Below are positions 848-23,619 of a stretch of DNA of 24,000 nucleotides, one piece after another (position 1 is the first letter of the stretch; the number at the start of each line of letters is the position of its first letter). The position numbers and the translations under genes are program-made. Source of the stretch: Candidatus Binataceae bacterium (GTDB lineage: Bacteria; Desulfobacterota; Binatia; Binatales; Binataceae); the NCBI GenBank assembly GCA_052145175.1, contig JBKQPD010000259.1, positions 25,972 to 49,971 of the forward strand, given 5' to 3'. The notes beneath the pieces are model-generated. The model worked only from the letters and a program-made list of their open reading frames with translations, was not told the origin of the DNA and made no database searches.

Positions 848-2740
848 TCAGTCCGCGAGTGGATCGACCTCGTAATGCTCGCTGTCGGGATTCTTGACCA
901 GTACTCCGCCCTGCGGCGGGTTGAGCTCGAAATACTTCTGCAGGACGGCCTTGACGGCCGGGGCCGCGGTGCTGCCGCCGTGGCCCGCGTGCTCGATAAT
1001 GCAGGCGACCGCGATGCGCGGATGGTCGAGCGGGGCGAAAGCGATGAACCAGCCGTGATCGCGGTACTTTTCAGGTATCGCGTTCTCCTTGGTGCGTTCG
1101 CCCTGGGCCTCCTTGACGACCTGCGCGGTCCCGGTCTTGCCGGCCACGATCACGTTATCCATCTTGGCCCCGTGCGCCGTGCCATCCGGCTGATTGACCA
1201 CGCCCGCCATCCCGGCGCGCACGAGGTCGAGGACCTCCGGATCGATCCGCACTTCGTTTTGAATGACGGGCGGAAACACCTTGACCGTGCTGCCGTCGAG
1301 CGCGTCGATCTCCTTGACGAATTGCGGCTTGTAGAGCGTGCCACCGTTGGCGACCGCCGCCGCCATATCGGCCAGTTGCAGCGGGGTGGCGCCGACGTAG
1401 CCCTGGCCGATCGCGGCGGAAAGGGTCTCGGCCGGATACCACCGCTCACCAAAGCGCTGCTCCTTCCATTGACTCGACGGGACCACGCCCGACCTTTCGT
1501 TGTCGAGCTCAATTCCGCTCTTTTTGCCCAAACCCAGGGCGTGCGCCCAGACCGCCAACCGGTCGATCCCGAGATGCTGGCCGACGTTGTAAAAGAAGAC
1601 GTCGCAGGATTCCACGATTGCGCGATGGAGCGAGATCGAGCCGTGCCCCTGTTTGCGCCAGCAGCGGTATTCGCGGCCACCGAAGTAGATCCCGCCGGCG
1701 CAAGTGTACGCGGTTTGCGGAGTCAGGGTGCGGTCCTGCAGGGCGGCGATCGAGTCCACAATTTTGAAGGTCGACCCGGGTGGATAGACGCCCTGGATGA
1801 CGCGGTTCGACAGCGGATGCTCGGGATCGGTGGTCAGCGTACGCCAGAGCGTGTTCGTGATTCCGCCGGCGAAGCCGTTGGGATCGAAGGTCGGATGACT
1901 CGCCATCGCGAGGATATAGCCGGTGTTCGGATCGATCGCGACCAGGGCGCCGGCGCGATCGCCGATCGCGTCCTCGGCCACGCGCTGCAGGTCGAGGTCG
2001 ATCGTCATCATGACACTGTTGCCGGGGCGCTCCGGAATCTCGCGCAGCATCCGCAGCCGGCGGCCCACCGAGTCGACTTCAATTTCCTGGCCACCGCTCT
2101 CGCCACGCAAACTCGGCTCCCAGGTTCGTTCGAGCCCGAACTTGCCGATCTCGTCGCCCATCCGGTAATCCGGCAGGCGATTGAGATCGCGCACCGTGAC
2201 CTCGCCCACGTAGCCGAGCAGATGGGCAGCCAGTGAACCGTAGATATAGTGGCGGCGCGGATTCACCTGCAGGCTGACGCCCGGCAAGTCGAGCTGATGA
2301 GTTTCGAGCGCCACGACCTGCGGCCATTGCAGGCGCTCCTCGACGGTCACCGGATCGAATTCCGGACGGCCCTGGTCTTCGGCGTCGTCCAGCTTCTTCC
2401 CGACGCCGTCTTCGCCGAGCAGCTTCTCCAGCCGCGCCGTGGTGACATTGATGTCAGGGGCGTCCTCGGGCACCATCACCGCGTCGAACGAGGGGCGGGT
2501 ATCGACCAGCGCCCGATGACGCACGTCGTAGACCAGCCCGCGCAGCGCCGGCTGGCGTTGCAGGCGGATCCGGTTGCGGTCGGCCAGCTCCGCCATCTCA
2601 TGATGCTTGATCATCTGGAGGTAGTAGAGCCGCGTAGCAGCGCCGGTCAGCACGGCCAGAATGATCACGGTCAGCGCGGCGACGCGCGGTTCCAGCCGGG
2701 GGATGGGCCGGTTTTTGCTGTGGGTTGTGAATTTGGCCAC
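848..2740 (-). CDS. mrdA: Penicillin-binding protein 2 (elongasome D,D-transpeptidase)
   Basis: 630-aa ORF with an N-terminal TM anchor (AALTVIILAVLTGAATRLYYL). Active-site triad motifs are present: STFK (SxxK), SCD (SxD) and KTGTA. The GTG start at 2740 is preceded by AGAGG. It lies between mreD and rodA. Confidence 0.95.
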   Translation of the reverse strand: MAKFTTHSKNRPIPRLEPRVAALTVIILAVLTGAATRLYYLQMIKHHEMAELADRNRIRLQRQPALRGLVYDVRHRALVDTRPSFDAVMVPEDAPDINVTTARLEKLLGEDGVGKKLDDAEDQGRPEFDPVTVEERLQWPQVVALETHQLDLPGVSLQVNPRRHYIYGSLAAHLLGYVGEVTVRDLNRLPDYRMGDEIGKFGLERTWEPSLRGESGGQEIEVDSVGRRLRMLREIPERPGNSVMMTIDLDLQRVAEDAIGDRAGALVAIDPNTGYILAMASHPTFDPNGFAGGITNTLWRTLTTDPEHPLSNRVIQGVYPPGSTFKIVDSIAALQDRTLTPQTAYTCAGGIYFGGREYRCWRKQGHGSISLHRAIVESCDVFFYNVGQHLGIDRLAVWAHALGLGKKSGIELDNERSGVVPSSQWKEQRFGERWYPAETLSAAIGQGYVGATPLQLADMAAAVANGGTLYKPQFVKEIDALDGSTVKVFPPVIQNEVRIDPEVLDLVRAGMAGVVNQPDGTAHGAKMDNVIVAGKTGTAQVVKEAQGERTKENAIPEKYRDHGWFIAFAPLDHPRIAVACIIEHAGHGGSTAAPAVKAVLQKYFELNPPQGGVLVKNPDSEHYEVDPLAD

Positions 2741-2845
2741 GATCGCCTGCCTCTTAGCAGGCTATTGAAAAAGGATTTTCAACGCCTGCTGCCCTCACTG
2801 TAATTCCCGTAGGGAGAGAACTAAAGGAAAGAAGCCGATTTTGAT

Positions 2846-2905
2846 GCAGGATGTTGAGAACGAACCATCGATGGAATTCACGATATTCACTTCTCAACAT
2901 CCTGC
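2846..2905. repeat. Perfect 15-bp inverted repeat (GCAGGATGTTGAGAA 2846-2860 / TTCTCAACATCCTGC 2891-2905) with a 30-nt loop that contains the 10-bp palindrome CCATCGATGG (2865-2874)
   Basis: Read directly from the sequence. It lies in an AT-rich 172-bp gap between the mreD stop (2913) and the mrdA start (2740). Two smaller hairpins lie nearby: TTGAAAA/TTTTCAA around 2765-2782 and GCCTGC/GCAGGC around 2745-2762. Confidence 0.8.
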
Positions 2906-2912
2906 TTGAAGC

Positions 2913-3419
2913 CTATTCCCGCAAGCCGCGTTGCCGCAATCCGACCGACCGCGCCGCCCCCGCCATCACCGCGAAAACCGCGGGTGCGCAGAGCGCGGTA
3001 ATCGCCGCCTGAATGAGGATCGCCGGCATTGCCAGCCCCAGGCTTTCGCTCCGCCCCCAATCCGCCGCGGCGACGGCGTTGCCCAAGTCGATAAAAATGA
3101 CCGCGCCAAACACGGCGATTACCCCGATCACGGCGGTGCTCGAGAGCAATGAGCGGGAGAGCCCGGACGTCAAAATGAAGACCAGGATGAACAGCAGGGC
3201 GTTGAGTCCAAGCTGGCCCCCGGAGAAGGTGTCGGTCGCGTAACCGATCCCGAAAGCCATCAGGGCGGCGGCCGCGCTGTAATAGCGCAGGCCGAGATTA
3301 ACCGCCAAAACCAACGCCAGATTCGGCATGAGCACGTCGAAGGGCAGCAGCCGCGTGAAGGTGGTCTGGAGGGCCAGGGCGATAAGCGTCGCGATCGCGA
3401 ATACCCCAATCAAGCGCAC
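2913..3419 (-). CDS. mreD: Rod shape-determining protein MreD
   Basis: 168-aa, very hydrophobic multi-TM protein. The GTG start is preceded by GAGGAG that overlaps the mreC stop. Its position between mreC and mrdA is diagnostic; the sequence family itself is weakly conserved. Confidence 0.8.
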   Translation of the reverse strand: MRLIGVFAIATLIALALQTTFTRLLPFDVLMPNLALVLAVNLGLRYYSAAAALMAFGIGYATDTFSGGQLGLNALLFILVFILTSGLSRSLLSSTAVIGVIAVFGAVIFIDLGNAVAAADWGRSESLGLAMPAILIQAAITALCAPAVFAVMAGAARSVGLRQRGLRE

Positions 3420-3426
3420 GGACTCC

Positions 3427-4278
3427 TCAGTTCTGGCCTTCGAGCTGCAGTTCGGGCGGCTTCTGCGTCAGCACCATCAGTTGCTCGAGCTTGTGAAAAT
3501 CGACCGCCGGAAGGACCTCGACATTGAGAAAAAGCCCCGGTCCTTCCTGGGAAACCCGTCCTACTTCGCCGACCAGCAGGCCGCGCGGGAAAATCCCGTC
3601 CATGCCCGACGTGACGATCCGATCGCCCGGCCGCAGGTCCTCCGACCGATCGACGTATTTCATGGTGAGGCCGTCGTCGATCACGCCGGCCACGATTCCG
3701 CGCGCGCGGCTGCGCTGGTCGATCGCATCGAGCGCGGAGTTGTGATCGTCGATCAGCAGCACCCGGGCGGCGTCGGGCGCCACCACCATCAGGCGGCCGA
3801 CCACGCCTTCGTTGGCGATTACGGCCATGTCGCGGCGCAGACCCCCATGCGAGCCCTGTCCGACGATGATCGTCCGCGAGAGCGCGTTCGCGTCGCTGCC
3901 AATCACGTTGACCGCCACGGCCCTGGTGGCCAGCACTTCGCGGAGTTCGAGCAGGTCGGCCAGGCGGTGGTTCTCGCTTTCCAATTCCTGCATGCGCGCC
4001 TGCTGGCTATCGAATTCAGCGAGTCGCCGCCGCAGTTCGGCGTTTTCACGACGCACGCCGACCAACGCAAAGTAATCATGGAGGAACCCGCTCGAACCTC
4101 CGGTGATGCCGGCCACGAAGGTCTGAAACGGGCGCAGCAGTTCGATCAGGACGAGCGCGGGTTTGCTCGCGCGCGCATCCGGCCGCACACCTGAACTAAG
4201 CAGATGCAGCGCGAGAATCAGCAGCGTTCCGGTGGTCAGAAGGACCCGGTTACGCCAAAGGAAAGAGCTTCTCACCAA
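3427..4278 (-). CDS. mreC: Rod shape-determining protein MreC
   Basis: 283-aa ORF with an N-terminal TM segment (VLLTTGTLLILALHLL). A coiled-coil region follows (RRENAELRRRLAEFDSQQARMQELESENHRLADLLELRE), then beta-rich domains (VGRLMVVAPDAARVLLIDD...GDRIVTSGMDGIFPRGLLVGEV). The start is TTG 4278 or GTG 4275, after GGGGAG. Confidence 0.9.
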   Translation of the reverse strand: MVRSSFLWRNRVLLTTGTLLILALHLLSSGVRPDARASKPALVLIELLRPFQTFVAGITGGSSGFLHDYFALVGVRRENAELRRRLAEFDSQQARMQELESENHRLADLLELREVLATRAVAVNVIGSDANALSRTIIVGQGSHGGLRRDMAVIANEGVVGRLMVVAPDAARVLLIDDHNSALDAIDQRSRARGIVAGVIDDGLTMKYVDRSEDLRPGDRIVTSGMDGIFPRGLLVGEVGRVSQEGPGLFLNVEVLPAVDFHKLEQLMVLTQKPPELQLEGQN

Positions 4279-4337
4279 GGCTCCCCAAGCTGGGGACTCG
4301 CAGCGTCAGAATAGCGGTGAACTTTGCTCTGCGACAA

Positions 4338-5477
<1,140 letters not shown>

Positions 5478-13659: not shown

Positions 13660-14814
13660 TCAGTCCTTCGGCGTGGCGATCGCCCCGCAGCCGCGAAGCT
13701 GTTCGAGGTCCGTCGCGCTGAAACCCCAGTCGCGCAGCGCCTCCTCCGTATGCTCACCCGGCCGGGCCGGCGGCCGTTGAATCGCGCCGGGAGTCCGGCT
13801 GAAGCGCGGCGCCGGCGCCGGCTGGACCACGCCGTCCCGTTCGACGAAGGTTCCGCGCAGCTTGTTATGCGGATGATGGGGCGCCTCGGCCATGCTCAGC
13901 ACCGGCGCGAAGCAGATGTCGCTGCCCTCCATGATCTTGCACCACGCGTCGCGCGTTTTGGTGCGGAACAGTGTGGCGACCCGCTCCTTCATCTGGGGCC
14001 ACGCCTTGCGGTCATTCTGCGGCGCCAATTCCTCTTTCTTCAGTCCCGAGAGCCTGAGCAGTTCGTCGTAGAACTTGCCTTCGATCGAGCCGATCGAGAC
14101 ATACTTGCCGTCGCTGGTCTCGTAGACGTCGTAATAGTGGGCGCCGGTATCGAGCACGTTCGCGCCGCGCTCGTCGGTCCAGAAGCCGGCCCCGTGCATC
14201 CCATAGATGGCGGTCATCAGAGACGCGGCGCCGTCGACCATGGCGGCGTCGATTACCTGACCCTTACCCGATTTTTGCGTTTCGAGCAGGCCGGTCACCA
14301 CGCCGAAGGCGAGGTACATCGCGCCGCCGCCAAAATCGCCAACCAGGTTGAGTGGAGGGACGGGCGCCTGACCGCGCCGGCCAATCGTGTTCAACGCGCC
14401 CGACAGCGCGATATAGTTGATGTCGTGGCCGGCGGCTGCGGCGAGCGGGCCTTCCTGACCCCAACCGGTCATCCGGCCGTAAACCAGACGCGGATTGCGG
14501 CCGAGGCAGACGTCCGGTCCGATGCCCAGCCGTTCCATCACGCCGGGACGAAAGCCCTCGATTAGGGCGTCGGCGCGCTCCACGAGCCGCAGGACGGTGG
14601 CGATTGCCTCGGGCCGTTTCAGGTCGAGCGCGATCGAGCGACGGCCGCGATTAAGCAGGCTGTACTTGGTCTGCAACGAGATCCCGAGCCCCGCGTCGGC
14701 CGTGCGATCGATCCGCAGCACTTCCGCGCCCAGATCCGCCAGCAGCATCGCGCACATCGGCGCCGGTCCGATCCCGGCAAGCTCGATTATCTTGTAACCG
14801 TTGAGCGGTCCCAT
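13660..14814 (-). CDS. mcr: Alpha-methylacyl-CoA racemase (family III CoA-transferase fold)
   Basis: 384 aa. [64 protein letters not shown] and [16 protein letters not shown] are colinear with M. tuberculosis MCR, including the catalytic His (GHDINY) and Asp (GDFGGG) contexts. GAGGTG lies upstream. Confidence 0.85.
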
Positions 14815-14921
14815 GATTCACCTCGACTGGTTTCGCAGCAATTTTCCGCATCCAACCTTAGCATAAGAGCGTAAGAGCAAAAGGGGCGCGGGTGTACACC
14901 CGGCAACTGCGTTCGTCAGCT

Positions 14922-15434
14922 TCAGGGCGAGCCGTTGCCGGAAGCCGGCGCGGCAGTGGCGTGTTGGTAGATTATCGCGACGGCGTTGAGAATCCGGCCT
15001 TTGTGCCCCTCTTCGCCAACCTCGGCATCGTGTTCGCTCGAGCTGTCATCGGCGCCGCCCTCCGCTCCGGCGCCCTTGCCCCCCAACGGTTTGCCACGCT
15101 GCTGCCGCTGGTCCTCGAGCACCACCAGGGCGTCGGCGCCGGTTTCACAGGCCTTGCGCCGAGCCAGACCGTAGATTTCCTGGTTGTCCGCATTGTAATC
15201 ATCGCTGACCTCGATGATCGCAATCTCCTGATAGTCGGCATTCGGCAGCGCGGACAGCGTCGGTAGCGGACAATCGAAGGGTTTCGCGGCGCGGGTTCGC
15301 GGCGCGAGCCAGCTCACCGTGGTCTCCGGAGGATCCTTCTGCGCCGCGCAGCTCGACAGCGTCGCGATGATCGCGGCAATCGCCGCTCCGCTAATCCACT
15401 TGGCCGCCTTACTGATCGCGCACCGTGTTTTCAT
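14922..15434 (-). CDS. Small lipoprotein (hypothetical)
   Basis: The internal ATG at 15434 gives MKTRCAISKAAKWISGAAIAAIIATLSSC with lipobox LSS|C. The 70-aa upstream extension in the track has no signal-peptide logic. The mature part has an acidic, Gly-rich insert. Confidence 0.65.
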   Translation of the reverse strand: MKTRCAISKAAKWISGAAIAAIIATLSSCAAQKDPPETTVSWLAPRTRAAKPFDCPLPTLSALPNADYQEIAIIEVSDDYNADNQEIYGLARRKACETGADALVVLEDQRQQRGKPLGGKGAGAEGGADDSSSEHDAEVGEEGHKGRILNAVAIIYQHATAAPASGNGSP

Positions 15435-15548
15435 CGAGCTTCCCGCGGGTGTGAACCGCCCCTTGTCCGCATGCATAGAAGGAAAAGATCGCATACGTTG
15501 AATCGTTATAGTAGAGCGTTTACAAACTAGCGGAGCGAGACGGGATAC

Positions 15549-15577
15549 TTGACGCTCGATCGCAGGTCGATCATAAC
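15549..15577 (+). promoter_or_regulatory. Candidate sigma70-like promoter for the LLM oxidoreductase gene (-35 TTGACG, 17-nt spacer, -10 CATAAC)
   Basis: Hexamer match only. It lies about 80 nt upstream of the ATG at 15656, in the divergent intergenic region. Confidence 0.25.
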
Positions 15578-15655
15578 GCTGAGGGTGGCGGTCGTGCGCG
15601 GTCGGGCTCAGGGTCGTCGCGGACAACGGGCAAAACTCTGACAAAAAGGAAACTC

Positions 15656-16729
15656 ATGAACTTCGGACTGCTGATGGCGTTTCGGAACCCGCCACCAACC
15701 AAGACGCCGTTCACGGAAATCTATGGTAAGCATCTCGACCTTGCGGTGGAAGCCGAGGAGTTGGGCTACGATTCGATTTGGCTGACTGAGCATCACTTTG
15801 TCGACGACGGTTACTCGCCGTCATTGCTGCCGATCGCCGCCGCGATCGCCGCCCGCACGAAGAAAATCCGTATCGGCACCTTCGTTATTTTGCTGCCGCT
15901 GCACAATCCGATTCGAATCGCGGAGGACGCCGCGACCGTGGACATCCTTTCCAACGGCCGTCTCGACCTCGGTTTCGGCCAAGGGTATCGGGTGCCGGAA
16001 TTCACCGGCTTCAATATTGCGCGGAAGGAGCGCGGTCCGCGGCTCGAGGAGAACGCGGAAATCGTGCGGCGGCTCTTCACCGAAAAGAATCTCAGCTTCA
16101 ACGGCCGTTTCAACCAGATTGCCGGCGCGACCCTGACGCCGGGTGCGGTCCAGCGTCCCCATCCGCCGATCTGGCTGGCGGCGCGCGGGCCCAAATCGAT
16201 CGCGCGGGCGGCGCGCAACGGTTACCATCTGATGGGCACCGGCGGCGTCGATCAGCAGCAGACGTACGACGCGGCGCTGCGCGAAGCCGGCCGGAATCCC
16301 AAGGATTACCATATCGCCCAGCTACGCACAGTGTTTGTCGCGCCGCGCCGCGCGGCCGCCTGGGACGCCGCGGAAGCCGGGGCACACTACATCATGAGCT
16401 GTTATGGCAAATGGTTTGCCGAGGCGAACGATCTGCCGGGCGACGCCGGCTTCGCCGCGAACCTCCCGCCGGTCAAAAAGCTGCGTGACGCGGAAACCGC
16501 GGCGCTGTTCGGTGAGCCGCTGATTATCGGCACGCCGGACGAGGCGATCACGATGATCGAGGATTATCAGGCGCGCAGCCGCGTCACTCATCTCGTGATG
16601 GCGACCGTGCTGCCCAAGACCGATTTCAAAAAGGCGAGCGCAAGTCTGCGGCTCTTCGCCAAAGAGGTGATGCCGCATTTTCGCCGCAAGGCCCGCGCGC
16701 AGGCGCGCCCCAAACGTGCCTCCCGCTAG
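15656..16729 (+). CDS. LLM-class (luciferase-like) flavin/F420-dependent oxidoreductase
   Basis: 357 aa. MNFGLLMAF...AEELGYDSIWLTEHHF...RLDLGFGQGY...PHPPIWLAA is a typical luciferase-like monooxygenase family pattern. AAGGAA lies upstream. Confidence 0.88.
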   Translation: MNFGLLMAFRNPPPTKTPFTEIYGKHLDLAVEAEELGYDSIWLTEHHFVDDGYSPSLLPIAAAIAARTKKIRIGTFVILLPLHNPIRIAEDAATVDILSNGRLDLGFGQGYRVPEFTGFNIARKERGPRLEENAEIVRRLFTEKNLSFNGRFNQIAGATLTPGAVQRPHPPIWLAARGPKSIARAARNGYHLMGTGGVDQQQTYDAALREAGRNPKDYHIAQLRTVFVAPRRAAAWDAAEAGAHYIMSCYGKWFAEANDLPGDAGFAANLPPVKKLRDAETAALFGEPLIIGTPDEAITMIEDYQARSRVTHLVMATVLPKTDFKKASASLRLFAKEVMPHFRRKARAQARPKRASR

Positions 16730-17189
16730 CCGGGTCGGGAACGCTCCGCCGTCGCGGGTGCTTTCCCGCGCGCTCGCGACACTGGGTGCGGCGCTGCTGA
16801 TGAGCCTCCTCGCGGCCTGCTCGTCCGAAGTTGAACCGCAAGAGCCGCCGCCGCAGCCGCAGCAGGCGATCATCAAGGTGCCCGACAAGGCGCTGGACCG
16901 CGAGCGTCTCCAGGTCCAGACGGGCAATCTTGCGCTGCCCTATGATCAACTGGGCGAACTCGAGTACACCGAGCCATTTTCGCCACGGGCGATCGACGAC
17001 GACTATATCGACGACAAGCTGCGGGCGATGGCGATGCAAAGGTGGGGCAATCAGGTTGACGCGGTTATTGACGTCAAGACCGCGCTCAGTTCCGACGAGA
17101 GTGAGGTGAGCGTGACGGCGCAGGCCGTCAAGGTCCGCGGCGATTGCTCGTTCTGCCGCCATCAAGGTGGCTATCCGACCGGCCAGTGA
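16716..17189 (+). CDS. Small lipoprotein (hypothetical)
   Basis: Signal peptide with lipobox LAA|C (LSRALATLGAALLMSLLAACSSE). The start is GTG 16716, which overlaps the LLM gene by 14 nt, or in-frame GTG 16758. The core resembles the 14922-15434 lipoprotein. Confidence 0.6.
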   Translation: MPPASRVGNAPPSRVLSRALATLGAALLMSLLAACSSEVEPQEPPPQPQQAIIKVPDKALDRERLQVQTGNLALPYDQLGELEYTEPFSPRAIDDDYIDDKLRAMAMQRWGNQVDAVIDVKTALSSDESEVSVTAQAVKVRGDCSFCRHQGGYPTGQ

Positions 17190-17197
17190 CGAAGTTC

Positions 17198-17671
17198 TTA
17201 TTTCGCGGGAGTGTCTTTGGCGGAGCGTTTGGCAGCCGCCCGCCGGCGTGCGTAAACCGCCGGATCGGCGAGCGGAGAATGGCTGTGCTGATGTGCCGGG
17301 GTCTTTTCGACGGGCGTTCCGCGCTTTTGCTGCTGGTCCGTCCGTGCCGCGACGGTGTCGTCGTATTCCGCCCCCCGACCGTGCAGGTAGGCCGCATAGC
17401 GCGAGGTCGTTGGTTGATCCATCCAGCAGAGTTGCGCCGGCGGTGGCACCCTCAAGCGCGTCACATCCGACCGGGTTGCCGCCGACGGCGCGGGTGGGGC
17501 TTCGCGCGTAGCCGCATCCCCGCCGCGGCCGAAGACCACGGCTGACAGCATCCGCCGCGCGCGCCGGCCGCATCCGGGACACGGATGGCTCCTGGTGGCC
17601 GACTCGCGCAACGACGCGAGTACCTCAAACGTTGCGTCGCAATGCCCGCAATAGCACTCGTAGAGTGGCAT
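17198..17671 (-). CDS. FmdB-family zinc-ribbon protein with a long C-terminal extension
   Basis: The ATG at 17671 gives MPLYECYCGHCDATFEVL...HPCPGCG, the FmdB/CxxC-CxxC signature. It starts 11 nt after the lactonase stop. At about 157 aa it is longer than the usual 70-110 aa. Confidence 0.7.
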   Translation of the reverse strand: MPLYECYCGHCDATFEVLASLRESATRSHPCPGCGRRARRMLSAVVFGRGGDAATREAPPAPSAATRSDVTRLRVPPPAQLCWMDQPTTSRYAAYLHGRGAEYDDTVAARTDQQQKRGTPVEKTPAHQHSHSPLADPAVYARRRAAAKRSAKDTPAK

Positions 17672-17682
17672 TCGATGAAATA

Positions 17683-18453
17683 TCAGTCGATGCGGTGTGG
17701 ATGTTCCTTCCAGTCCTCGGGGTCGTGCGTGATCCACATCGTCGCGCCCTGCATATCGCGGATCATCTTGATGCGCTGGAGCGACCTGATCGACTGGGTC
17801 GGATCATAGTCGATACCCATTGTCGCCCCGTTCTCCACCGCGGCGCGCAGATGCGCGGTGTCGCCGGTCAGCAGGAACTTGCGATTGGGCAGATTGACCA
17901 GCACCGAGCATTCGCCGGGCGTATGACCAGGGGTCAGCAGAAACTGGATCGCGCCGTCGCCGAACAAGTCGAAATCCCCTGCGAGCTCCAACCAGTCGTA
18001 ACCGCGCGTCGGCAGGAAATCGTTCAGGATAAACCCCCAGCGCCGATCGGGATCGGGCCAGTAGGCGTAACGCAGTTCATTCGCGCCAACCAGGAACTTG
18101 GCCTTGGGAAAATAGGTGAGGCCGCCCGAGTGATCGAGATGGGAGTGCGAGAGGATGACGTACTTGATATCGGAGGTCTTGTAGCCGACCCCTTCGATCT
18201 GCTTGTCGAGCGTATCGGCCTTGTTCCATTTGACGGGCAGGGCCTGCGCCACTTCACCCCAGTAGCCCACGGCGTCATCGATGATTTTGGCGTTGCAGCC
18301 GGTATCGAACAGCACCAAGCCCTTCGGATGTTCGATCAGGAACGAGGGACAGGGCAGTTGCAGCAGTTCATCGCTCCCGCCGTGCATCAGAAGTGACGCC
18401 GGAGCGGTCAGTTCCGCGCCCGGCAGCGCCCACATTTTTTTTGCTGTCGCCAT
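17683..18453 (-). CDS. MBL-fold lactonase (N-acyl-homoserine-lactonase / 4-pyridoxolactonase-like family)
   Basis: 256 aa. Metallo-beta-lactamase motifs SHSHLDHSGG (HxHxDH), TPGHTPG, TGDTAH and ITHD. GGAGA lies 8 nt upstream of the ATG. Confidence 0.85.
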   Translation of the reverse strand: MATAKKMWALPGAELTAPASLLMHGGSDELLQLPCPSFLIEHPKGLVLFDTGCNAKIIDDAVGYWGEVAQALPVKWNKADTLDKQIEGVGYKTSDIKYVILSHSHLDHSGGLTYFPKAKFLVGANELRYAYWPDPDRRWGFILNDFLPTRGYDWLELAGDFDLFGDGAIQFLLTPGHTPGECSVLVNLPNRKFLLTGDTAHLRAAVENGATMGIDYDPTQSIRSLQRIKMIRDMQGATMWITHDPEDWKEHPHRID

Positions 18454-18580: not shown

Positions 18581-19207
18581 TTAATCAGGTTTGCTGGACG
18601 CGAGGGTCAGCGGCGCCGCGCGCAGCGCCTCGGCGGCCAGGGTCCGGGCCTGAAAAAGACAATAGACCACTGCGACGATCAGAATGATCGCGGCCACGGT
18701 CAGCGGCGCGACCAGCGGATGCCACCAGGCGCCGACTTCCAAATCAAAATGAACGCGATAGACCACCGGGACCGTGCCGATCGTCAGCATCGCGCTGTAC
18801 GCGCCGCTCGCGAGGTCGGTCTGGACGTCGATTACGCCTGACGGATAACGTCGCGCGGGAATCGAGACGCGCCGCGTTCCACCGTCCTGCGCGATTTCGA
18901 CCGCGACCGGCGCATTCGTTAGATCGCTCCCGACCAGATCGAAGACCAGCAACGTCCGGCCACCCTGGGGAACGCTGCCGCAGTATTCGGCGAAGCGATT
19001 GAACTCGGGCTGATAAGCGGAAAAATGTACGTAATTGTTCAGCCCGGCCCATTGGGCGCAGGGGTCATAGTCCAGCCCCGGACCGCCACCGTGAGCCCAG
19101 ACCTGACGCGGGAGGATCGCCGTCGCGATCGCGATTAACATTGCCGCCGTGACCAGCGGACGGAGGCGGCGGCATGTGCGCGGCTTGCGGTGATTGCGCT
19201 TCGTCAT
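18581..19207 (-). CDS. Fourth gene of the CuMMO operon: secreted, C-terminally membrane-anchored protein (PmoD/AmoD-like architecture; homology unverified)
   Basis: The ATG at 19207 shares its A with the pmoB TGA (TGATG). It encodes MTKRNHRKPRTCRRLRPLVTAAMLIAIATAILPRQVWA|HGGGPG..., with predicted cleavage leaving an N-terminal His. A beta-rich domain of about 130 aa with two Cys follows, then a C-terminal TM helix (LVAPLTVAAIILIVAVVYCLF). The 52-aa upstream extension in the track would overlap pmoB. Confidence 0.7.
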   Translation of the reverse strand: MTKRNHRKPRTCRRLRPLVTAAMLIAIATAILPRQVWAHGGGPGLDYDPCAQWAGLNNYVHFSAYQPEFNRFAEYCGSVPQGGRTLLVFDLVGSDLTNAPVAVEIAQDGGTRRVSIPARRYPSGVIDVQTDLASGAYSAMLTIGTVPVVYRVHFDLEVGAWWHPLVAPLTVAAIILIVAVVYCLFQARTLAAEALRAAPLTLASSKPD

Positions 19208-20469
19208 CACAACTCGCCCACCAGATGGCCGGTGAAGGTCGGCACGATCGAGCTGCTGAACTCGACGATCGAACGCTTGCCGGCCGGATCGAAGAACATG
19301 AAAAGGCCGCCGATCCGGCTGGTCGGATCGCTCATCAGCGCGGTCAGCCGATCGGTCTCCCACACGGGGCTGGTCGCCTCGAGATACATCTCGATACTTT
19401 CGCCGGCCGCGATCGGACGGTTTGGCTGCACGAGCAGTCCGGCCGGCGCCAGCAGATCCGGCGGATAGTCGGGATCGGCGCGGGAGACGCTGGCGTTCAG
19501 GAAGCGCAGATTCGCCGTCGTGAACTCGCCCAGCCGGACCGGTTGCGCACCGTGATTGGTCACCCGCAGATGGAACTGGACCGTGCGCCCGGGTACGAGG
19601 TAGGTCACCGTTTCGGGCTCGATCGTGACGCCAGCTGGCGGCTCGTCGAGCGCCGGAACCTTGGTCTGATGGGACTGCAGGGGAATCGTCACCGGGTTGG
19701 CGACGTTGGTAACGGCAAACGCGACAATCGCTGTTACCAAGGTTGCCGCGAGCATCACCGCCGCCATCATGCGATCACCGCGCGTGATCAGCCGGTCGCC
19801 CTCGCCCGCCTGCACCGCCGCGTAACGCGGCATCAGCAGCGGCTTGCGGATCCAGTAGCCCAGCCAGACGAGCGCGAGCGCAACCCACACGAGATGCCAT
19901 CCGATCACGATCCGCAGGCCGTAACTCGCCAGGTTGAGCCGCCGGCCGGTCAGCGTCGTGACCCAGTCGTCGAAGCTCGCCGGATCGCCCACCACGGTCA
20001 CCCACTGGCCGGGTCCGAGAATCGCGCCCGCGTCGAGCACGTCAAGCATCGGATGGACGTGATAGCGGCCCGGCAGACGTCCACGCAGCACGATGCGGTA
20101 GGCGTAGTCGCCGCCCAGCTGCAGGGCCATCGAGGAAACCCCGTTTACCCCGTTGACCTCGCTCTCCGCGCGCGTAAAGACCGGGCCGGGTACGCCCACG
20201 TTGAGAAAGGTCAAGGTTGTGGGCGAGGGAATTTCGAGCGGCCAGCTCCCCATGATATGAAAGCGGCCGGTGACCACCAGCTCCTGATTGACGCTGACCC
20301 GCTGCGACGACCAGGTCGTGTCATACCATTGGATCGTCGAGAGCCGCAGCGAGGGTTCCTGCGCGCGTTCGCCGTGGGCGTATGCGATCGCCGGCAGCAG
20401 CATCGCGCAAACCAGGATGAGCAGCGCGCGACGCGCGGCGGCCCGGCAAGTTGTGCATGAGCGAATCAT
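19207..20469 (-). CDS. pmoB: Copper membrane monooxygenase subunit B (PmoB/AmoB-type)
   Basis: 420 aa. The signal peptide ends AYA|HGERAQEP, giving an N-terminal His. Other motifs: GRYHVHPML (His137/His139 context), two central TM helices, VTIPLQ, and RLGEFTTANLRFL plus a C-terminal cupredoxin region. It is colinear with M. capsulatus PmoB as I remember it. Confidence 0.93.
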   Translation of the reverse strand: MIRSCTTCRAAARRALLILVCAMLLPAIAYAHGERAQEPSLRLSTIQWYDTTWSSQRVSVNQELVVTGRFHIMGSWPLEIPSPTTLTFLNVGVPGPVFTRAESEVNGVNGVSSMALQLGGDYAYRIVLRGRLPGRYHVHPMLDVLDAGAILGPGQWVTVVGDPASFDDWVTTLTGRRLNLASYGLRIVIGWHLVWVALALVWLGYWIRKPLLMPRYAAVQAGEGDRLITRGDRMMAAVMLAATLVTAIVAFAVTNVANPVTIPLQSHQTKVPALDEPPAGVTIEPETVTYLVPGRTVQFHLRVTNHGAQPVRLGEFTTANLRFLNASVSRADPDYPPDLLAPAGLLVQPNRPIAAGESIEMYLEATSPVWETDRLTALMSDPTSRIGGLFMFFDPAGKRSIVEFSSSIVPTFTGHLVGEL

Positions 20470-20500: not shown

Positions 20501-21265
20501 TCAAATCTTCTTGAACCACGAGAACTGGCTTTTCACGAACAGCCAGCCGACGCCGACAAAGACCATATAGACGACGATCGACATGAAACCGGCAAAGGCG
20601 ACTGAGAGGTAGACGGGGTCCTGACCGAACGTCCGCAGCGTCCCCCGATTGATGATCCTGATGTACTCGGGCGTGCCGGTCCGGATGTAATGAAAGCCCT
20701 GCAGATCCGCGAGCGACATCAAGGCGCCGTGGAGATTCACCGGGGCGAGAAACGGCGCGATCAACGGCCAGTTGGCGAGGTAGAAGACCACCCCCCACAG
20801 GAAGCCCCCGACGATTCCCGCGATGAGAATACTGTCGGTCAGGAGCAACGTCGTATCGAGGGCGAGCCCGCACGGAATCAGGGTCGCCGGCCAGATGAAA
20901 TTCAGCGGAAAGTAGGCCCAGCCATGCATGTTAAGGACGCGATTCAGCCATTCGGCGGCGACCAGGCTGAACGTCAGGAAAGTCGCGGCGAAGGGCAGGC
21001 GGAAGCGCGACCAGAAGATAAATAGGATCGCCGACGGCATCGCGATTTCCACCACCGGCGTGAAAGAAAGCCACCAGCGGCTGTCTTTCCAGTCGTCCCA
21101 GAAATCCCAGTCGCCCACCGTCAGCATCGTGGCGACGTGGTAGAGCCCCATGAAGAGGAAGAACAACAGGATCGCGACGACCAGATCGAAGCGGCGATAG
21201 ACGCGATTCCGTTCTTCGGGCGTGACGGTTGCCGGCGCGGTCCGCGCGCGAAGAGAAGCCGCCAT
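20501..21265 (-). CDS. pmoA: Copper membrane monooxygenase subunit A (PmoA/AmoA-type)
   Basis: Motifs YHVATMLTVGDWDFWDDWKD, NWPLIAP and IRTGTPEYIRIINRGTLRTFG match the PmoA/AmoA hallmarks. The ATG at 21265 is preceded by GAGG 7 nt upstream. The track start at 21268 is GTG. Confidence 0.95.
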   Translation of the reverse strand: MAASLRARTAPATVTPEERNRVYRRFDLVVAILLFFLFMGLYHVATMLTVGDWDFWDDWKDSRWWLSFTPVVEIAMPSAILFIFWSRFRLPFAATFLTFSLVAAEWLNRVLNMHGWAYFPLNFIWPATLIPCGLALDTTLLLTDSILIAGIVGGFLWGVVFYLANWPLIAPFLAPVNLHGALMSLADLQGFHYIRTGTPEYIRIINRGTLRTFGQDPVYLSVAFAGFMSIVVYMVFVGVGWLFVKSQFSWFKKI

Positions 21266-21281
21266 CACGAGACCTCGCGCG

Positions 21282-22115
21282 TCAGGAAGCTTCGCGCTCG
21301 AAATCCAGCGCCGGGTCGTGGGCGGGACCGTCGGTCCCCTCGTAAGTCTGCGCGCGGCCCGTCGTCAGCTCATGGATATAATCGCAGACCTGCATCAGGA
21401 GTCCGCCCAAGCCCAGCCCGGCCCATGCGAAAATCACGAACCACCAGTGGACCGGCGCGGCGAACCGCTCTTCGAGAATCCAGAAACTGTGTGCCCATTC
21501 GTTGAACGCCACCACTGGCAGCAACATGAAGGGTCCCGCGACCGCGATCACCCACGGGAGCGAGTGGCGCGCGCCGAAACGCGGCAGCCGGGTCATCCCG
21601 TACAGGTACGACGTGATCCCGAGAATGATGTAGACCGGAAAAGCCCAGTAGAAAAGGATGATATGGCTGGGGGTGAACGACGTATCGCGCACCACCGTCT
21701 GATGCCAGCTCGCGTCTTCCTCGGCAAAGAAGCTGGCCGCCCAGAAGACCGCAAAAACGTAGAGAAAGATCAGGCCAATGAAAACGCCCAGCCGCCGGAG
21801 CTCCTCGGTCGCTTCAACCCGGCTCAGATCCCGGGGGCGCGAAAACCAGACGTAGCCCCAGATACCGGCGGCGGCAACGGCTTCGACGGCAAACTGACTG
21901 AACAGCAGGTTCATCCAGTACTTCTGGAATTCGGGCGAGGTCGAATCGAGACCCATGCTCCACGCGTACTGTTGCTGATAGAGGCGCGCCGCCACCATCA
22001 GCTTGGCGATTATGCCGCATCCGATCGCGATGAACGACGGATTAATCCACTGGACCTCGGTCCCGGCGCGGACCGTGGCATCGTTGACTTTCGTTGTGTT
22101 TAACAGTGTCGCCAT
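21282..22115 (-). CDS. pmoC: Copper membrane monooxygenase subunit C (PmoC/AmoC-type)
   Basis: Motifs DSTSPEFQKYWMN, EELRR, FAEEDASWHQTVVRDTSFTPSHII and NEWAHSFWILEERFAAPVHWWFVIFAW carry the Asp/His/His and Asn/His/His ligand contexts of PmoC. The ATG at 22115 is preceded by AGAGG 6 nt upstream. The track start at 22121 is TTG. Confidence 0.95.
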   Translation of the reverse strand: MATLLNTTKVNDATVRAGTEVQWINPSFIAIGCGIIAKLMVAARLYQQQYAWSMGLDSTSPEFQKYWMNLLFSQFAVEAVAAAGIWGYVWFSRPRDLSRVEATEELRRLGVFIGLIFLYVFAVFWAASFFAEEDASWHQTVVRDTSFTPSHIILFYWAFPVYIILGITSYLYGMTRLPRFGARHSLPWVIAVAGPFMLLPVVAFNEWAHSFWILEERFAAPVHWWFVIFAWAGLGLGGLLMQVCDYIHELTTGRAQTYEGTDGPAHDPALDFEREAS

Positions 22116-22174
22116 CGGCAACCTCTACGCGCGTGCAAAGCTCAAAATTCGCCAGGTGACTAAAATTCTTAACA

Positions 22175-22219: not shown

Positions 22220-22296
22220 CTTGACGCGCGGTCGCTATCCGCGCTACGCGAAGCTCAAGGGTCTGCTTTTCCCGACCAACCTTGGAGGACATTGAG

Positions 22297-23619
22297 ATGG
22301 CGCAATCATCGAATCGCTATAGCGGCCAATCGACCAGCGTGGCCAGCGGATGGAAATGTACGCAATTGACGCCGCCGAGCGCCCTGTTTGGCGCGAACGG
22401 GATGCGGCTGGGGCCCGACGGCCGGCTCTACGTCGCGCAGGCCTTCGGCAGCCAAATCAGCGCGGTTGATATAGTGACCGGGGCGGTCGAGGTTATCAGC
22501 CCCAAGGGCAGCCCGATCGTCGGCCCCGACGACCTGGCTTTCGATTCCAAGGGGACCCTCTACATCACCGAAGTCATGAGCGCGCGAGTCTGTGCGCGGG
22601 CGCCGAACGGCGAACGGCGGATCATTGCGGACAATGTGTTGGGCGCCAACGGTGTGACGATCCAGCAGGATCGCATTTTCATGGACGAATGCCGCCCCGG
22701 CGGCCGGCTGTGGGAGTTGTACGCCGACGGCCGCGCGCCGCGGATGCTCGCCGACAACCTGCCGCTGCCCAACGCGCTCCGGCTCGGACCGGACGGCAAT
22801 ATCTATTTCCCCGTGCTCGGCGAGAACGCCATCTGGCGGATCCCGCTCGCTGGCGGCAAGCCTGAGCCGTTCGCCAAGGACCTCGGACTGCCCACCGCGG
22901 TCAAAATCAACAGCAAGGGCGAGGTCGTCTCGACCCAGGCTGCCACCGGCGAGATTCTCAAGATTGATATCCGCAGCGGCGCCAAGCGGGTCCATGCCAA
23001 AGTCCGGCCGGGACTCGACAATCTTGAGGTCTCAGCCGACGACCGGATCTTCATCTCGCACTTTACGGACGGCGGCGTGGCCGAGCTGATGGCCGACGGG
23101 AGCGAGCGGCGCCTGATCGACCCGGGCTTCTGCGGACCGGCGGGCCTGGCCGTCGGCACTGACGGGACCCTGTACGCCAGCGACGGTATCAGCATGGCGG
23201 CGGTCGCGCGCGACGGCTCGCAGCATCGGGTCGGGATGCTGTTCGACGGGCACTTCCCGGGTTTCGTGCGCGGGTTGGCGGCGGCGGCCAACGGCAATGT
23301 CGTCGTGACGACCTCGGCCGGCGACGTGACGACCTATCATCCGACGTCACACGAGATGACCGAACATGCGAAGGGTCTGCAGGAGCTGTACGGCGTGGCG
23401 GTCGGGCCGGGCGGCACGATCGTGGTCGCGGAAGGCGGCGCCGGTCGCGTGCTGGTGATTGCCGGCAAGGAGGTCAAGACCGCCGCGACCGGGCTCGCGC
23501 GTCCGAGCGGAGTCGCGGCCGCCAACGACGGGTCATGCTTTGTGAGCGCGGCCGGCGCGGGCCGCCGGAATATGGGGGGGGCGCCGACCGAGATGGGCGG
23601 CGCCCCGCTTGATCTCTGA
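22297..23619 (+). CDS. NHL-like multi-bladed beta-propeller protein; the 3' end appears non-native or truncated
   Basis: GGAGGA lies 7 nt before the ATG at 22297. About 10 repeats of the type P-x-G-[LV]-A-x-x-x-D-G-x-[LI]-Y-[VI]-x-[DE] are visible (PDDLAFDSKGTLYITEV, PAGLAVGTDGTLYASDG, LYGVAVGPGGTIVVAEGG). The last blade breaks off after ...NDGSCFVSAAGAGR. It then runs through a G8 tract and a GC hairpin as RNMGGAPTEMGGAPLDL*. No signal peptide. Confidence 0.7.
   Translation: MAQSSNRYSGQSTSVASGWKCTQLTPPSALFGANGMRLGPDGRLYVAQAFGSQISAVDIVTGAVEVISPKGSPIVGPDDLAFDSKGTLYITEVMSARVCARAPNGERRIIADNVLGANGVTIQQDRIFMDECRPGGRLWELYADGRAPRMLADNLPLPNALRLGPDGNIYFPVLGENAIWRIPLAGGKPEPFAKDLGLPTAVKINSKGEVVSTQAATGEILKIDIRSGAKRVHAKVRPGLDNLEVSADDRIFISHFTDGGVAELMADGSERRLIDPGFCGPAGLAVGTDGTLYASDGISMAAVARDGSQHRVGMLFDGHFPGFVRGLAAAANGNVVVTTSAGDVTTYHPTSHEMTEHAKGLQELYGVAVGPGGTIVVAEGGAGRVLVIAGKEVKTAATGLARPSGVAAANDGSCFVSAAGAGRRNMGGAPTEMGGAPLDL
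23515..23565. repeat. Left arm of a 51-bp inverted repeat (1 mismatch at 23549) shared with 23950-24000
   Basis: GCGGCCGCCAACGACGGGTCATGCTTTGTGAGCGcGGCCGGCGCGGGCCGC equals the reverse complement of 23950-24000 except C/A at 23549/23966. The arm reaches the window edge, so it may be longer. Confidence 0.9.
23578..23606 (-). terminator. GC-rich hairpin (GGGGCGCCG 23578-23586 / CGGCGCCCC 23598-23606, 11-nt loop) just 3' of the minus-strand propeller gene
   Basis: 9-bp perfect stem, starting 14 nt after the minus-strand TAG (23620-23622). It lies inside the odd C-terminal tail of the plus-strand ORF. Confidence 0.4.

Follow-up and report, generated by a model that had tools for sequence, protein, structure and literature searches.

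Results

The gene after pmoB almost certainly encodes a PmoD-family protein

The window analysed here, a stretch of 24,000 nucleotides from a Candidatus Binataceae bacterium (assembly GCA_052145175.1, contig JBKQPD010000259.1, positions 25,972 to 49,971), carries on its minus strand an operon for a copper membrane monooxygenase (CuMMO) of the PmoCAB type in which pmoB is followed by a fourth gene that we refer to as pmoD-like. The product of this gene is almost certainly a member of the PmoD/AmoD/AmoE family, and we consider it likely that it is a Met-less, C-x10-H-xn-C PmoD-family protein that is made together with the Binataceae PmoCAB and is accessory to the copper-dependent function of that enzyme. 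It is a divergent member of a known family of accessory copper proteins and not a new kind of subunit. The operon is composed as follows (coordinates are those of the window):

21282..22121, minus strand: pmoC-type subunit gene, which opens the operon (Pfam AmoC, E=8e-85)
20501..21268, minus strand: pmoA-type subunit gene (Pfam AMO, E=1.7e-84)
19207..20469, minus strand: pmoB-type subunit gene (Pfam Monooxygenase_B, E=1e-132; TGA stop at 19209-19207, read directly)
18581..19207, minus strand: pmoD-like gene, the fourth of the operon, 208 aa plus stop (open reading frame, homology to 6CPD, fold, and position after pmoB)

Against the NCBIfam model AmoC_BACT the pmoC product scores 315.5 bits, slightly below the 319-bit cutoff. 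The window PmoA is 60% identical to that of Candidatus Binatus and 49-50% identical to those of Cycloclasticus, these being its nearest named relatives.

The relationship to PmoD is evident in both sequence and fold. A search of 5.8 billion proteins returned 83 homologues of the pmoD-like protein, those with a name coming from Candidatus Binataceae or from metagenome-assembled genomes (MAGs) labelled 'Deltaproteobacteria'. A profile built from 42 relatives, when compared with all PDB sequences at E<=10, had as its sole match the PmoD of Methylocystis sp. Rockwell (6CPD; E=3.8e-18). BLASTP against the full-length form of that protein, Met49242_1452, aligned 191 aa, transmembrane helix included, at 25% identity (E=2e-13), and an hhalign comparison between the Binatota clade and the PmoDs of the alphaproteobacterial clade gave a probability of 98.4% (E=9e-15). 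AlphaFold2 predicts an all-beta sandwich, the core of which has a predicted local distance difference test (pLDDT) score of 90-97, followed by one long helix (mean pLDDT 83.8 and 88.2 for two models). With both models Foldseek placed 6cpd first by six orders of magnitude, with TM-scores of 0.71-0.77, followed by generic Ig-like domains; for the model of the mature protein the match to 6cpd has E=1.8e-9, a TM-score of 0.77 and a root-mean-square deviation of 2.2 Å. In alignments with PmoD, C50 falls on Cys41 and C76 on Cys65. Those features of PmoD/AmoD/AmoE proteins described by Fisher et al. (2018) that can be examined in a sequence are all present: a signal peptide, a cupredoxin-like domain, the two cysteines C1 and C2, a transmembrane helix and location in a CuMMO operon. 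A first-pass annotation of this DNA, made from the letters alone, had noted a resemblance to PmoD/AmoD that could not be confirmed by eye, and the profile search, BLASTP, hhalign and Foldseek now show it to be one of homology. When one genome per species was scanned with an alignment of 21 closer sequences, the gene was found in three Binataceae genomes, and the next-best matches, at 28-38% identity, were in Nitrosomonas, Nitrosospira, Nitrosovibrio and comammox Nitrospira.

The gene is closely joined to pmoB. The end of pmoB reads GAG TTG TGA and the pmoD-like ATG ACG begins on the A of that TGA, the start codon at 19207-19205 and the stop codon at 19209-19207 having one base in common (GTTGTGATGACG); the pmoD-like reading frame ends in a TAA at 18581-18583. 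Because the ATG overlaps the pmoB stop, re-initiation by ribosomes completing pmoB is possible. Both the shared base and a coupling of the gene to pmoCAB had been proposed in the first-pass annotation; the former agrees with our direct reading of the sequence, and the latter with the co-location of the genes and the one-base overlap. On near-identical public contigs the gene is called from the same ATG at the same length of 208 aa, and in the alignment the N-termini of homologues line up at this start. A 260-aa frame from a GTG at 19363, offered by the mechanical list of open reading frames, would overlap pmoB by 157 nt and was rejected, as it finds no support among homologue gene calls. Codon differences from the nearest relatives comprise 21 that are synonymous and 2 that are not, both of the latter in the cytoplasmic tail, and the gene is under purifying selection.

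Synteny of orthologues, which the first-pass annotation had put forward as a check, is conserved, with homologues directly after pmoB in 11/11 loci that include upstream sequence (L001-L003, from three Binataceae genomes; L081, a near-identical contig; and L085, L087-L091 and the P0064 locus, the remainder including the loci of P0029, P0040, P0012, P0064 and P0068). The loci covered include those of P0083 and P0075, from a divergent subgroup. Within the Binatota clade pmoB and the pmoD-like gene usually overlap, by 1-41 nt.

Architecture of the predicted protein

The 208-aa product can be divided into the following parts:

19094..19207, minus strand: signal peptide, residues 1-38, with a basic n-region, the hydrophobic core LVTAAMLIAIATAIL and the c-region PRQVWA (predicted cleavage position)
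19091..19093, minus strand: His39 codon cac, predicted mature residue 1 ('H1'), from conservation
18716..19093, minus strand: predicted exported cupredoxin-like beta-sandwich domain, residues 39-164 (AlphaFold, Foldseek)
19058-19060, 19025-19027 and 18980-18982, minus strand: codons for C50, H61 and C76, respectively, within that domain
18647..18715, minus strand: C-terminal transmembrane helix, approximately residues 165-187 (hydropathy peak 2.7; AlphaFold helix 166-197)
18584..18646, minus strand: predicted short cytoplasmic tail, residues 188-208, from R188, poorly conserved in the alignment

The hydropathy profile has a segment at approximately residues 14-36 and a strongly hydrophobic C-terminal segment at approximately residues 158-193, the core of the signal peptide itself being 15 residues long. 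Hydropathy and AlphaFold thus bear out the first-pass description of a signal peptide, a beta-rich domain and one C-terminal transmembrane helix. The junction PRQVWA/HGGG (here and below, the slash marks the predicted cleavage site) fits the -3/-1 rule, with V at -3 and A at -1. Reading CRRLRPL as a twin-arginine translocation (Tat) signal was considered and rejected, as the n-region is not conserved across homologues.

The full product has Cys at positions 12, 50, 76 and 183 and His at positions 6, 39, 61, 153 and 163. The predicted exported domain, of about 126 aa, has exactly two cysteines, C50 and C76, 26 residues apart and the only ones within residues 39-164, as had been noticed at first reading; the mature domain has a single Met, M140. 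The core motif is C50-x10-H61-x14-C76 (C50-AQWAGLNNYV-H61), in which Tyr59 occupies the position of the Met ligand. The further histidines to which the first-pass annotation drew attention fared unequally: H61 is present and invariant, whereas H153 (RVHF) and H163 (WWHP) are present but not conserved. In the transmembrane helix, Y182, C183 and Q186, near its cytoplasmic end, are invariant within the Binatota clade. This degree of conservation is unusual for a plain anchor and may reflect a helix-helix contact with PmoCAB.

Conservation of the histidine at the predicted mature N-terminus

The positions aligned with His39, Cys50, His61 and Cys76 are designated H1, C1, H2 and C2. A His is found at H1 in 82/82 close (Binatota-like) relatives and in 126 of the 142 representatives on which it was counted for the wider family, which consists of 721 clusters at E<=1e-3 in a library of 1.84 billion proteins. 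It is found in none of 119 alphaproteobacterial in-operon PmoDs, in which the position is E (83), S (10), A (9), D (8), G (6) or a gap (2). The mature N-terminal His predicted in the first-pass annotation is thus real as a feature of the sequence. Among the 199 full-length members of the close and wider sets, 189 have a His directly after an AXA-like site; in these 189, residue -1 is A in 169 and residue +2 is G in 172, and the distance from H1 to C1 is 10-11 residues in 153. Invariant or almost invariant residues are H39, G40, G41, C50, H61, Y65, Q66, C76 and D90. C1 is present in 140/142 and C2 in 141/142 of the representatives, and both are present in all other groups, while the position of the Met ligand is F, Y or L across the Binatota clade.

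The position is named 'H1' in a table of Fisher et al. (2018), where it is E in Met49242_1452 and H in NE0941/NE0942. It is not discussed in the main text of that paper (PMC6189053), where the phrase 'N-terminal histidine' appears unrelated to H1 and refers to the canonical CuA motif, and no paper in the literature searched links PmoD to a histidine brace. From the primers given by Fisher et al., some constructs begin at the H1 His. Every construct carried a vector-derived extra Ser-Met at its N-terminus, and the crystallised PmoD chain begins at SMG38, past the H1 position; the published constructs thus offer no free His1 amino group, and a copper site relying on one would so far have escaped notice.

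Relation to known PmoD classes and copper proteins

The pmoD-like gene resembles that for Met49242_1452 (6CPD) in its location after pmoB, and its product has the same three-part architecture, the same fold, and the C1/H2/C2 and F-D motif. It differs in having a C-x10-H arrangement with Tyr in place of Met49 and in lacking the Met42/Met44 cluster, and the predicted mature N-termini also differ, VWA/HGGGPG here versus RA/EGGAGPEAMSMGNMC in the Rockwell PmoD, which has Glu at this position (RA/EGGAGPE). In that protein, CuA spans a homodimer and involves Cys41, Met49 and His51 (Fisher et al., 2018; PMC6189053). According to the same study, all five PmoD homologues assayed bound copper, CuA formed only in the Cx7MxHxnC class and the Met-less classes bound copper without CuA features; the Met49Ala substitution abolished CuA and C65S lowered the copper stoichiometry; the two Cys are joined as a disulfide in crystals of PmoD, and reduction was needed for the in-vitro copper chemistry; and a delta-pmoD Methylosinus strain had a copper-dependent growth defect.

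Read directly, the pmoD-like sequence does not have the C-x7-M-x-H-xn-C motif of the CuA subclass. C1 and H2 are separated by ten residues, a Met ligand is lacking and C2 is present, as in the Cx10HxnC class that is populated in the supplementary table of Fisher et al. (2018) by Methylacidiphilum and Cycloclasticus. The gene for the PmoD of Methylacidiphilum IT6 adjoins that of an acetone-oxidising PmoCAB3; this PmoD has Cys31-x10-His42 with Ala for the Met, is co-induced with PmoCAB3, 12-24-fold on acetone, and when co-expressed with particulate methane monooxygenase (pMMO) raises acetol (PMC8764830). The pmoD-like protein shares with this class the C-x10-H spacing, a non-ligand residue in place of Met, and a putative association with a CuMMO whose substrate is not methane or not methane alone; it differs in that the PmoDs of Methylacidiphilum and Cycloclasticus belong to other phyla, the likeness being one of motif class and description. 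Among the Methylacidiphilum entries in the Fisher table, H1 is present in Minf_1470 and Minf_1498 and absent from Minf_1300.

Comparison by tblastn with Nitrosomonas and Nitrosospira gave 32-38% identity to AmoE and 24-29% to AmoD. At the loci of beta-proteobacterial ammonia-oxidising bacteria (beta-AOB) the best match is the first gene after amoB (AmoE/orf4), with the second (AmoD/orf5) weaker. Like AmoE and AmoD, the pmoD-like protein has an A/HG predicted N-terminus, C1/H2/C2, and a gene located downstream of the B subunit gene; unlike AmoE (Cx7MxH) and AmoD (Cx8MH), both of which carry the Met, it has none at that position. There is one copy here, as compared with two or three tandem paralogues in nitrifiers. 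At the loci of comammox and other Nitrospira (L007-L080, e.g. L013 6001-7716) three tandem PmoD paralogues are found, of which the first two have A/HG, the first being Cx9H (no Met) or Cx7MxH and the second Cx8MH; the third reads AQA/QHFHELDKNFC, with His at predicted mature positions 2 and 4.

With histidine-brace proteins (CuB of PmoB/AmoB, CopC, YcnI and lytic polysaccharide monooxygenases, LPMOs) the pmoD-like protein has in common a predicted His1 and the availability of a second invariant His, H61; the N-terminus of the window PmoB, AYA/HGE, follows the same logic as VWA/H. Unlike CopC, YcnI and LPMOs, with which it has no relation of sequence or fold, its HGGG is modelled as disordered. 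In CopC, YcnI and LPMOs, by contrast, His1 sits within the folded core.

Genomic surroundings of pmoD-like genes

In the window, no intrinsic terminator was detected between the pmoD-like gene and the gene for a metallo-beta-lactamase (MBL)-fold hydrolase downstream, the counts in the scan for terminators and promoters being at chance level. The surroundings of pmoCABD in Binatota recur (window 13660-18453 and 22282-23619; also L091, L081 and L090), and in the window they comprise:

17683-18453, minus strand: MBL-fold hydrolase, 127 nt downstream of the pmoD-like gene
17198-17737: Zn_ribbon_8 protein, downstream of the pmoD-like gene
15656-16729: luciferase-like monooxygenase, downstream of the pmoD-like gene
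13660-14814: family III coenzyme A (CoA)-transferase, downstream of the pmoD-like gene
22282-23619: divergent NHL/SGL beta-propeller, upstream of the operon

These recurring neighbours may point to a downstream pathway for the product of the monooxygenase. Also in the window, at 848-5456 on the minus strand, lies a cell-shape cluster encoding a PBP2-type transpeptidase, MreD, MreC and MreB; the presence of this housekeeping cluster indicates that the monooxygenase operon belongs to the chromosome and is not part of an evident mobile element.

Other loci show variations. At the P0064 locus a SCO1/SenC gene directly follows pmoD, and at L089 (4439-8416) a multicopper oxidase and a pyrroloquinoline quinone (PQQ) dehydrogenase are encoded after pmoD; SCO1/SenC and a multicopper oxidase beside the pmoD of relatives fit a copper-related role. 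L089 also has an extra 116-aa reading frame that separates pmoA from pmoB, an arrangement to which Murphy et al. refer as 'CAxB'. At L091 (9346-11058), some 3 kb downstream of the pmoCABD cluster of a Binatota member, a gene for MbnB/TglH/ChrH (DUF692) is accompanied by one for HvfC_N, a pair associated with the maturation of copper- or metal-binding peptides; no equivalent of MbnB/HvfC_N was found among the scanned window reading frames. At L004 (1180-4632) the order is pmoD-pmoC-pmoA-pmoB, with the PmoD homologue upstream and a PmoA 54% identical to that of the window, on a contig labelled as an 'uncultured Enterobacteriaceae' MAG that is probably misbinned. The divergent subgroup P0069-P0083 (loci L085 1887-2654 and L087 1553-2329) has proteins of about 255 aa with two insertions, one of about 26 residues after the YQ motif and the other, acidic and His-rich (for example SHxHD...HH...EEEAYHAHD), before the last strand; A/HGGG, C1, H2 and C2 are kept, and FtsH and a phosphate-selective porin are encoded downstream.

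Discussion

How might a PmoD-family protein of this kind serve a Binataceae monooxygenase? In the model that we favour, the protein would be exported by the Sec system and cut by signal peptidase I after VWA38, leaving His39 with a free N-terminus; judged from the cleavage motif and its conservation, export with His39 as the N-terminal residue is predicted with good confidence. The domain would then be periplasmic, tethered to the inner membrane beside the monooxygenase. Rather than a rigid brace, a Gly-rich stretch such as the N-terminal His-Gly-Gly could offer a flexible arm on which amino group, imidazole and backbone amides together coordinate Cu(II). A mononuclear copper site might be located near the N-terminus, made up of the amino group and imidazole of His39 on the flexible HGGG arm and of His61, with reduced Cys50/Cys76 or Asp48/Asp90 as possible further ligands. 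That a mononuclear site involving His39 exists is suggested by the conservation pattern, although we put its chances at slightly less than even. Such a protein might deliver or maintain copper, or provide redox support, for the copper-dependent activity of the monooxygenase. By analogy with the growth defect of delta-pmoD Methylosinus and the co-expression result for the Methylacidiphilum protein, its role is probably an accessory one in copper-dependent monooxygenase function.

Several points weigh against this picture, or parts of it. The disulfide in the PmoD crystal raises the possibility that C50 and C76 are structural only, and the physiological role of PmoD is described as still open, model organisms included (PMC13058606). 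The assignment of cleavage after VWA38 was made from the -3/-1 rule together with family conservation. The co-occurrence of H1 and H2 is not strict, nine members having H1 only and 12 having H2 only, so that the two need not form one site. Finally, residues 1-4 of the mature protein, HGGG, have pLDDT <50 in the AlphaFold model of the mature protein, and because of this low confidence a pre-organised brace as in CopC or LPMOs is not supported.

Other explanations for the gene have been weighed. A CuA electron-transfer dimer, in which Cys50 thiolates would bridge two coppers with His61 as in-plane ligand and electrons would pass to the monooxygenase, is brought to mind by the alignment of Cys50 and His61 with the PmoD CuA ligands Cys41 and His51 and by the in-operon location of the gene, as for CuA-forming PmoDs. 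However, the counterpart of Met49, substitution of which by Ala is enough to abolish CuA, is Tyr59 here, and F, Y or L across the clade; 10 residues lie between Cys and His where PmoD has 9; and the other classes tested by Fisher et al. bound copper without forming CuA, which was restricted to Cx7MxHxnC. With the Met replaced by Tyr and the spacing one residue longer, no dimeric CuA is expected, and we regard such a dimer as improbable. A new lineage-specific copper subunit unrelated to PmoD, or a brace protein of the CopC, YcnI or LPMO type, had been entertained in the first-pass annotation, and the predicted N-terminal His and the lack of any match to the pmoD-like reading frame in Pfam (E<=1) or NCBIfam could be taken in its favour. 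Yet canonical PmoD has no Pfam model either, which makes the missing match uninformative, and no CopC, YcnI/DUF1775 or LPMO was found by Pfam at E<=1, among PDB sequences at E<=10 or in the top 50 Foldseek folds for either model, so that the candidates named there lack membership by sequence or by fold. The homology to PmoD is clear, and nitrifiers, comammox Nitrospira and further lineages also have relatives of the protein, the PmoD/AmoD/AmoE family as a whole spanning methanotrophs, beta-AOB and comammox Nitrospira. The motif class was already recognised by Fisher et al. (2018), and pmoD had already been recorded in 5/11 CuMMO-bearing Binatota genomes (Murphy et al., 2021; PMC8262859); a paper on CuMMO evolution mentions no fourth gene. 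The homology results rule out a new subunit without relation to PmoD, and the alternative as a whole retains a vanishingly small probability.

Two further alternatives were considered. The protein might be a non-metal accessory or structural partner, its helix and beta domain docking on PmoCAB to stabilise it, assist its assembly or gate substrate, with His and Cys in structural roles; a 'transport protein' has been proposed for the Methylacidiphilum PmoD (Chau et al.). Strict adjacency and translational coupling, which suggest stoichiometric co-production, are consistent with this, as are the clade-invariant residues of the transmembrane helix, the crystal disulfide and the altered substrate turnover of pMMO in the presence of Methylacidiphilum PmoD. 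Set against these are the binding of copper by every PmoD homologue tested in vitro, an invariant predicted N-terminal His and a second surface His that are hard to explain structurally, the copper-handling neighbours in relatives, and the fact that PmoD is not seen in the cryo-electron microscopy maps of pMMO and ammonia monooxygenase (PMC13058606), and we think a purely structural partner unlikely. A periplasmic thiol-disulfide redox protein, in which cycling of Cys50/Cys76 between dithiol and disulfide would, for example, supply the enzyme with Cu(I) by reduction of Cu(II), would give a role to C1 and C2, the only family-universal residues, and would sit well with a pair that is oxidised in the crystal, whereas the in-vitro copper chemistry calls for reduced protein; the drop in stoichiometry in C65S is a hint of copper binding by the second Cys. 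But a Cys spacing of about 25 residues is unlike that of CxxC redox motifs and Foldseek found no thioredoxin-like fold with either model, and we consider this explanation very unlikely.

A broader reading concerns the family as a whole. It is conceivable, although we would rate it as rather unlikely at present, that the copper site with which the family started, and which still prevails in it, the pmoD-like protein and the AmoD/AmoE of nitrifiers included, is a mononuclear one built on a free H1, either as a histidine brace or as an HGG arm, and not the dimeric CuA. CuA may in that case have arisen later as a speciality of the alphaproteobacterial in-operon clade, in which H1 has uniquely become Glu, or be a property that the proteins of this clade show in vitro.

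In itself the gene is an ordinary extension of what is known, and it confirms that the PmoD family accompanies CuMMOs well outside the classical methanotrophs and nitrifiers. Here the host lineage is Binatota, the nearest named relatives of the window PmoA outside that phylum are those of Cycloclasticus, and pmoD is tightly coupled to the operon. About 90% of family representatives, AmoD and AmoE included, have a predicted N-terminal His that is absent from the sole clade to have been studied structurally and spectroscopically, and the question of H1 bears on what PmoD/AmoD does for pMMO and ammonia monooxygenase.

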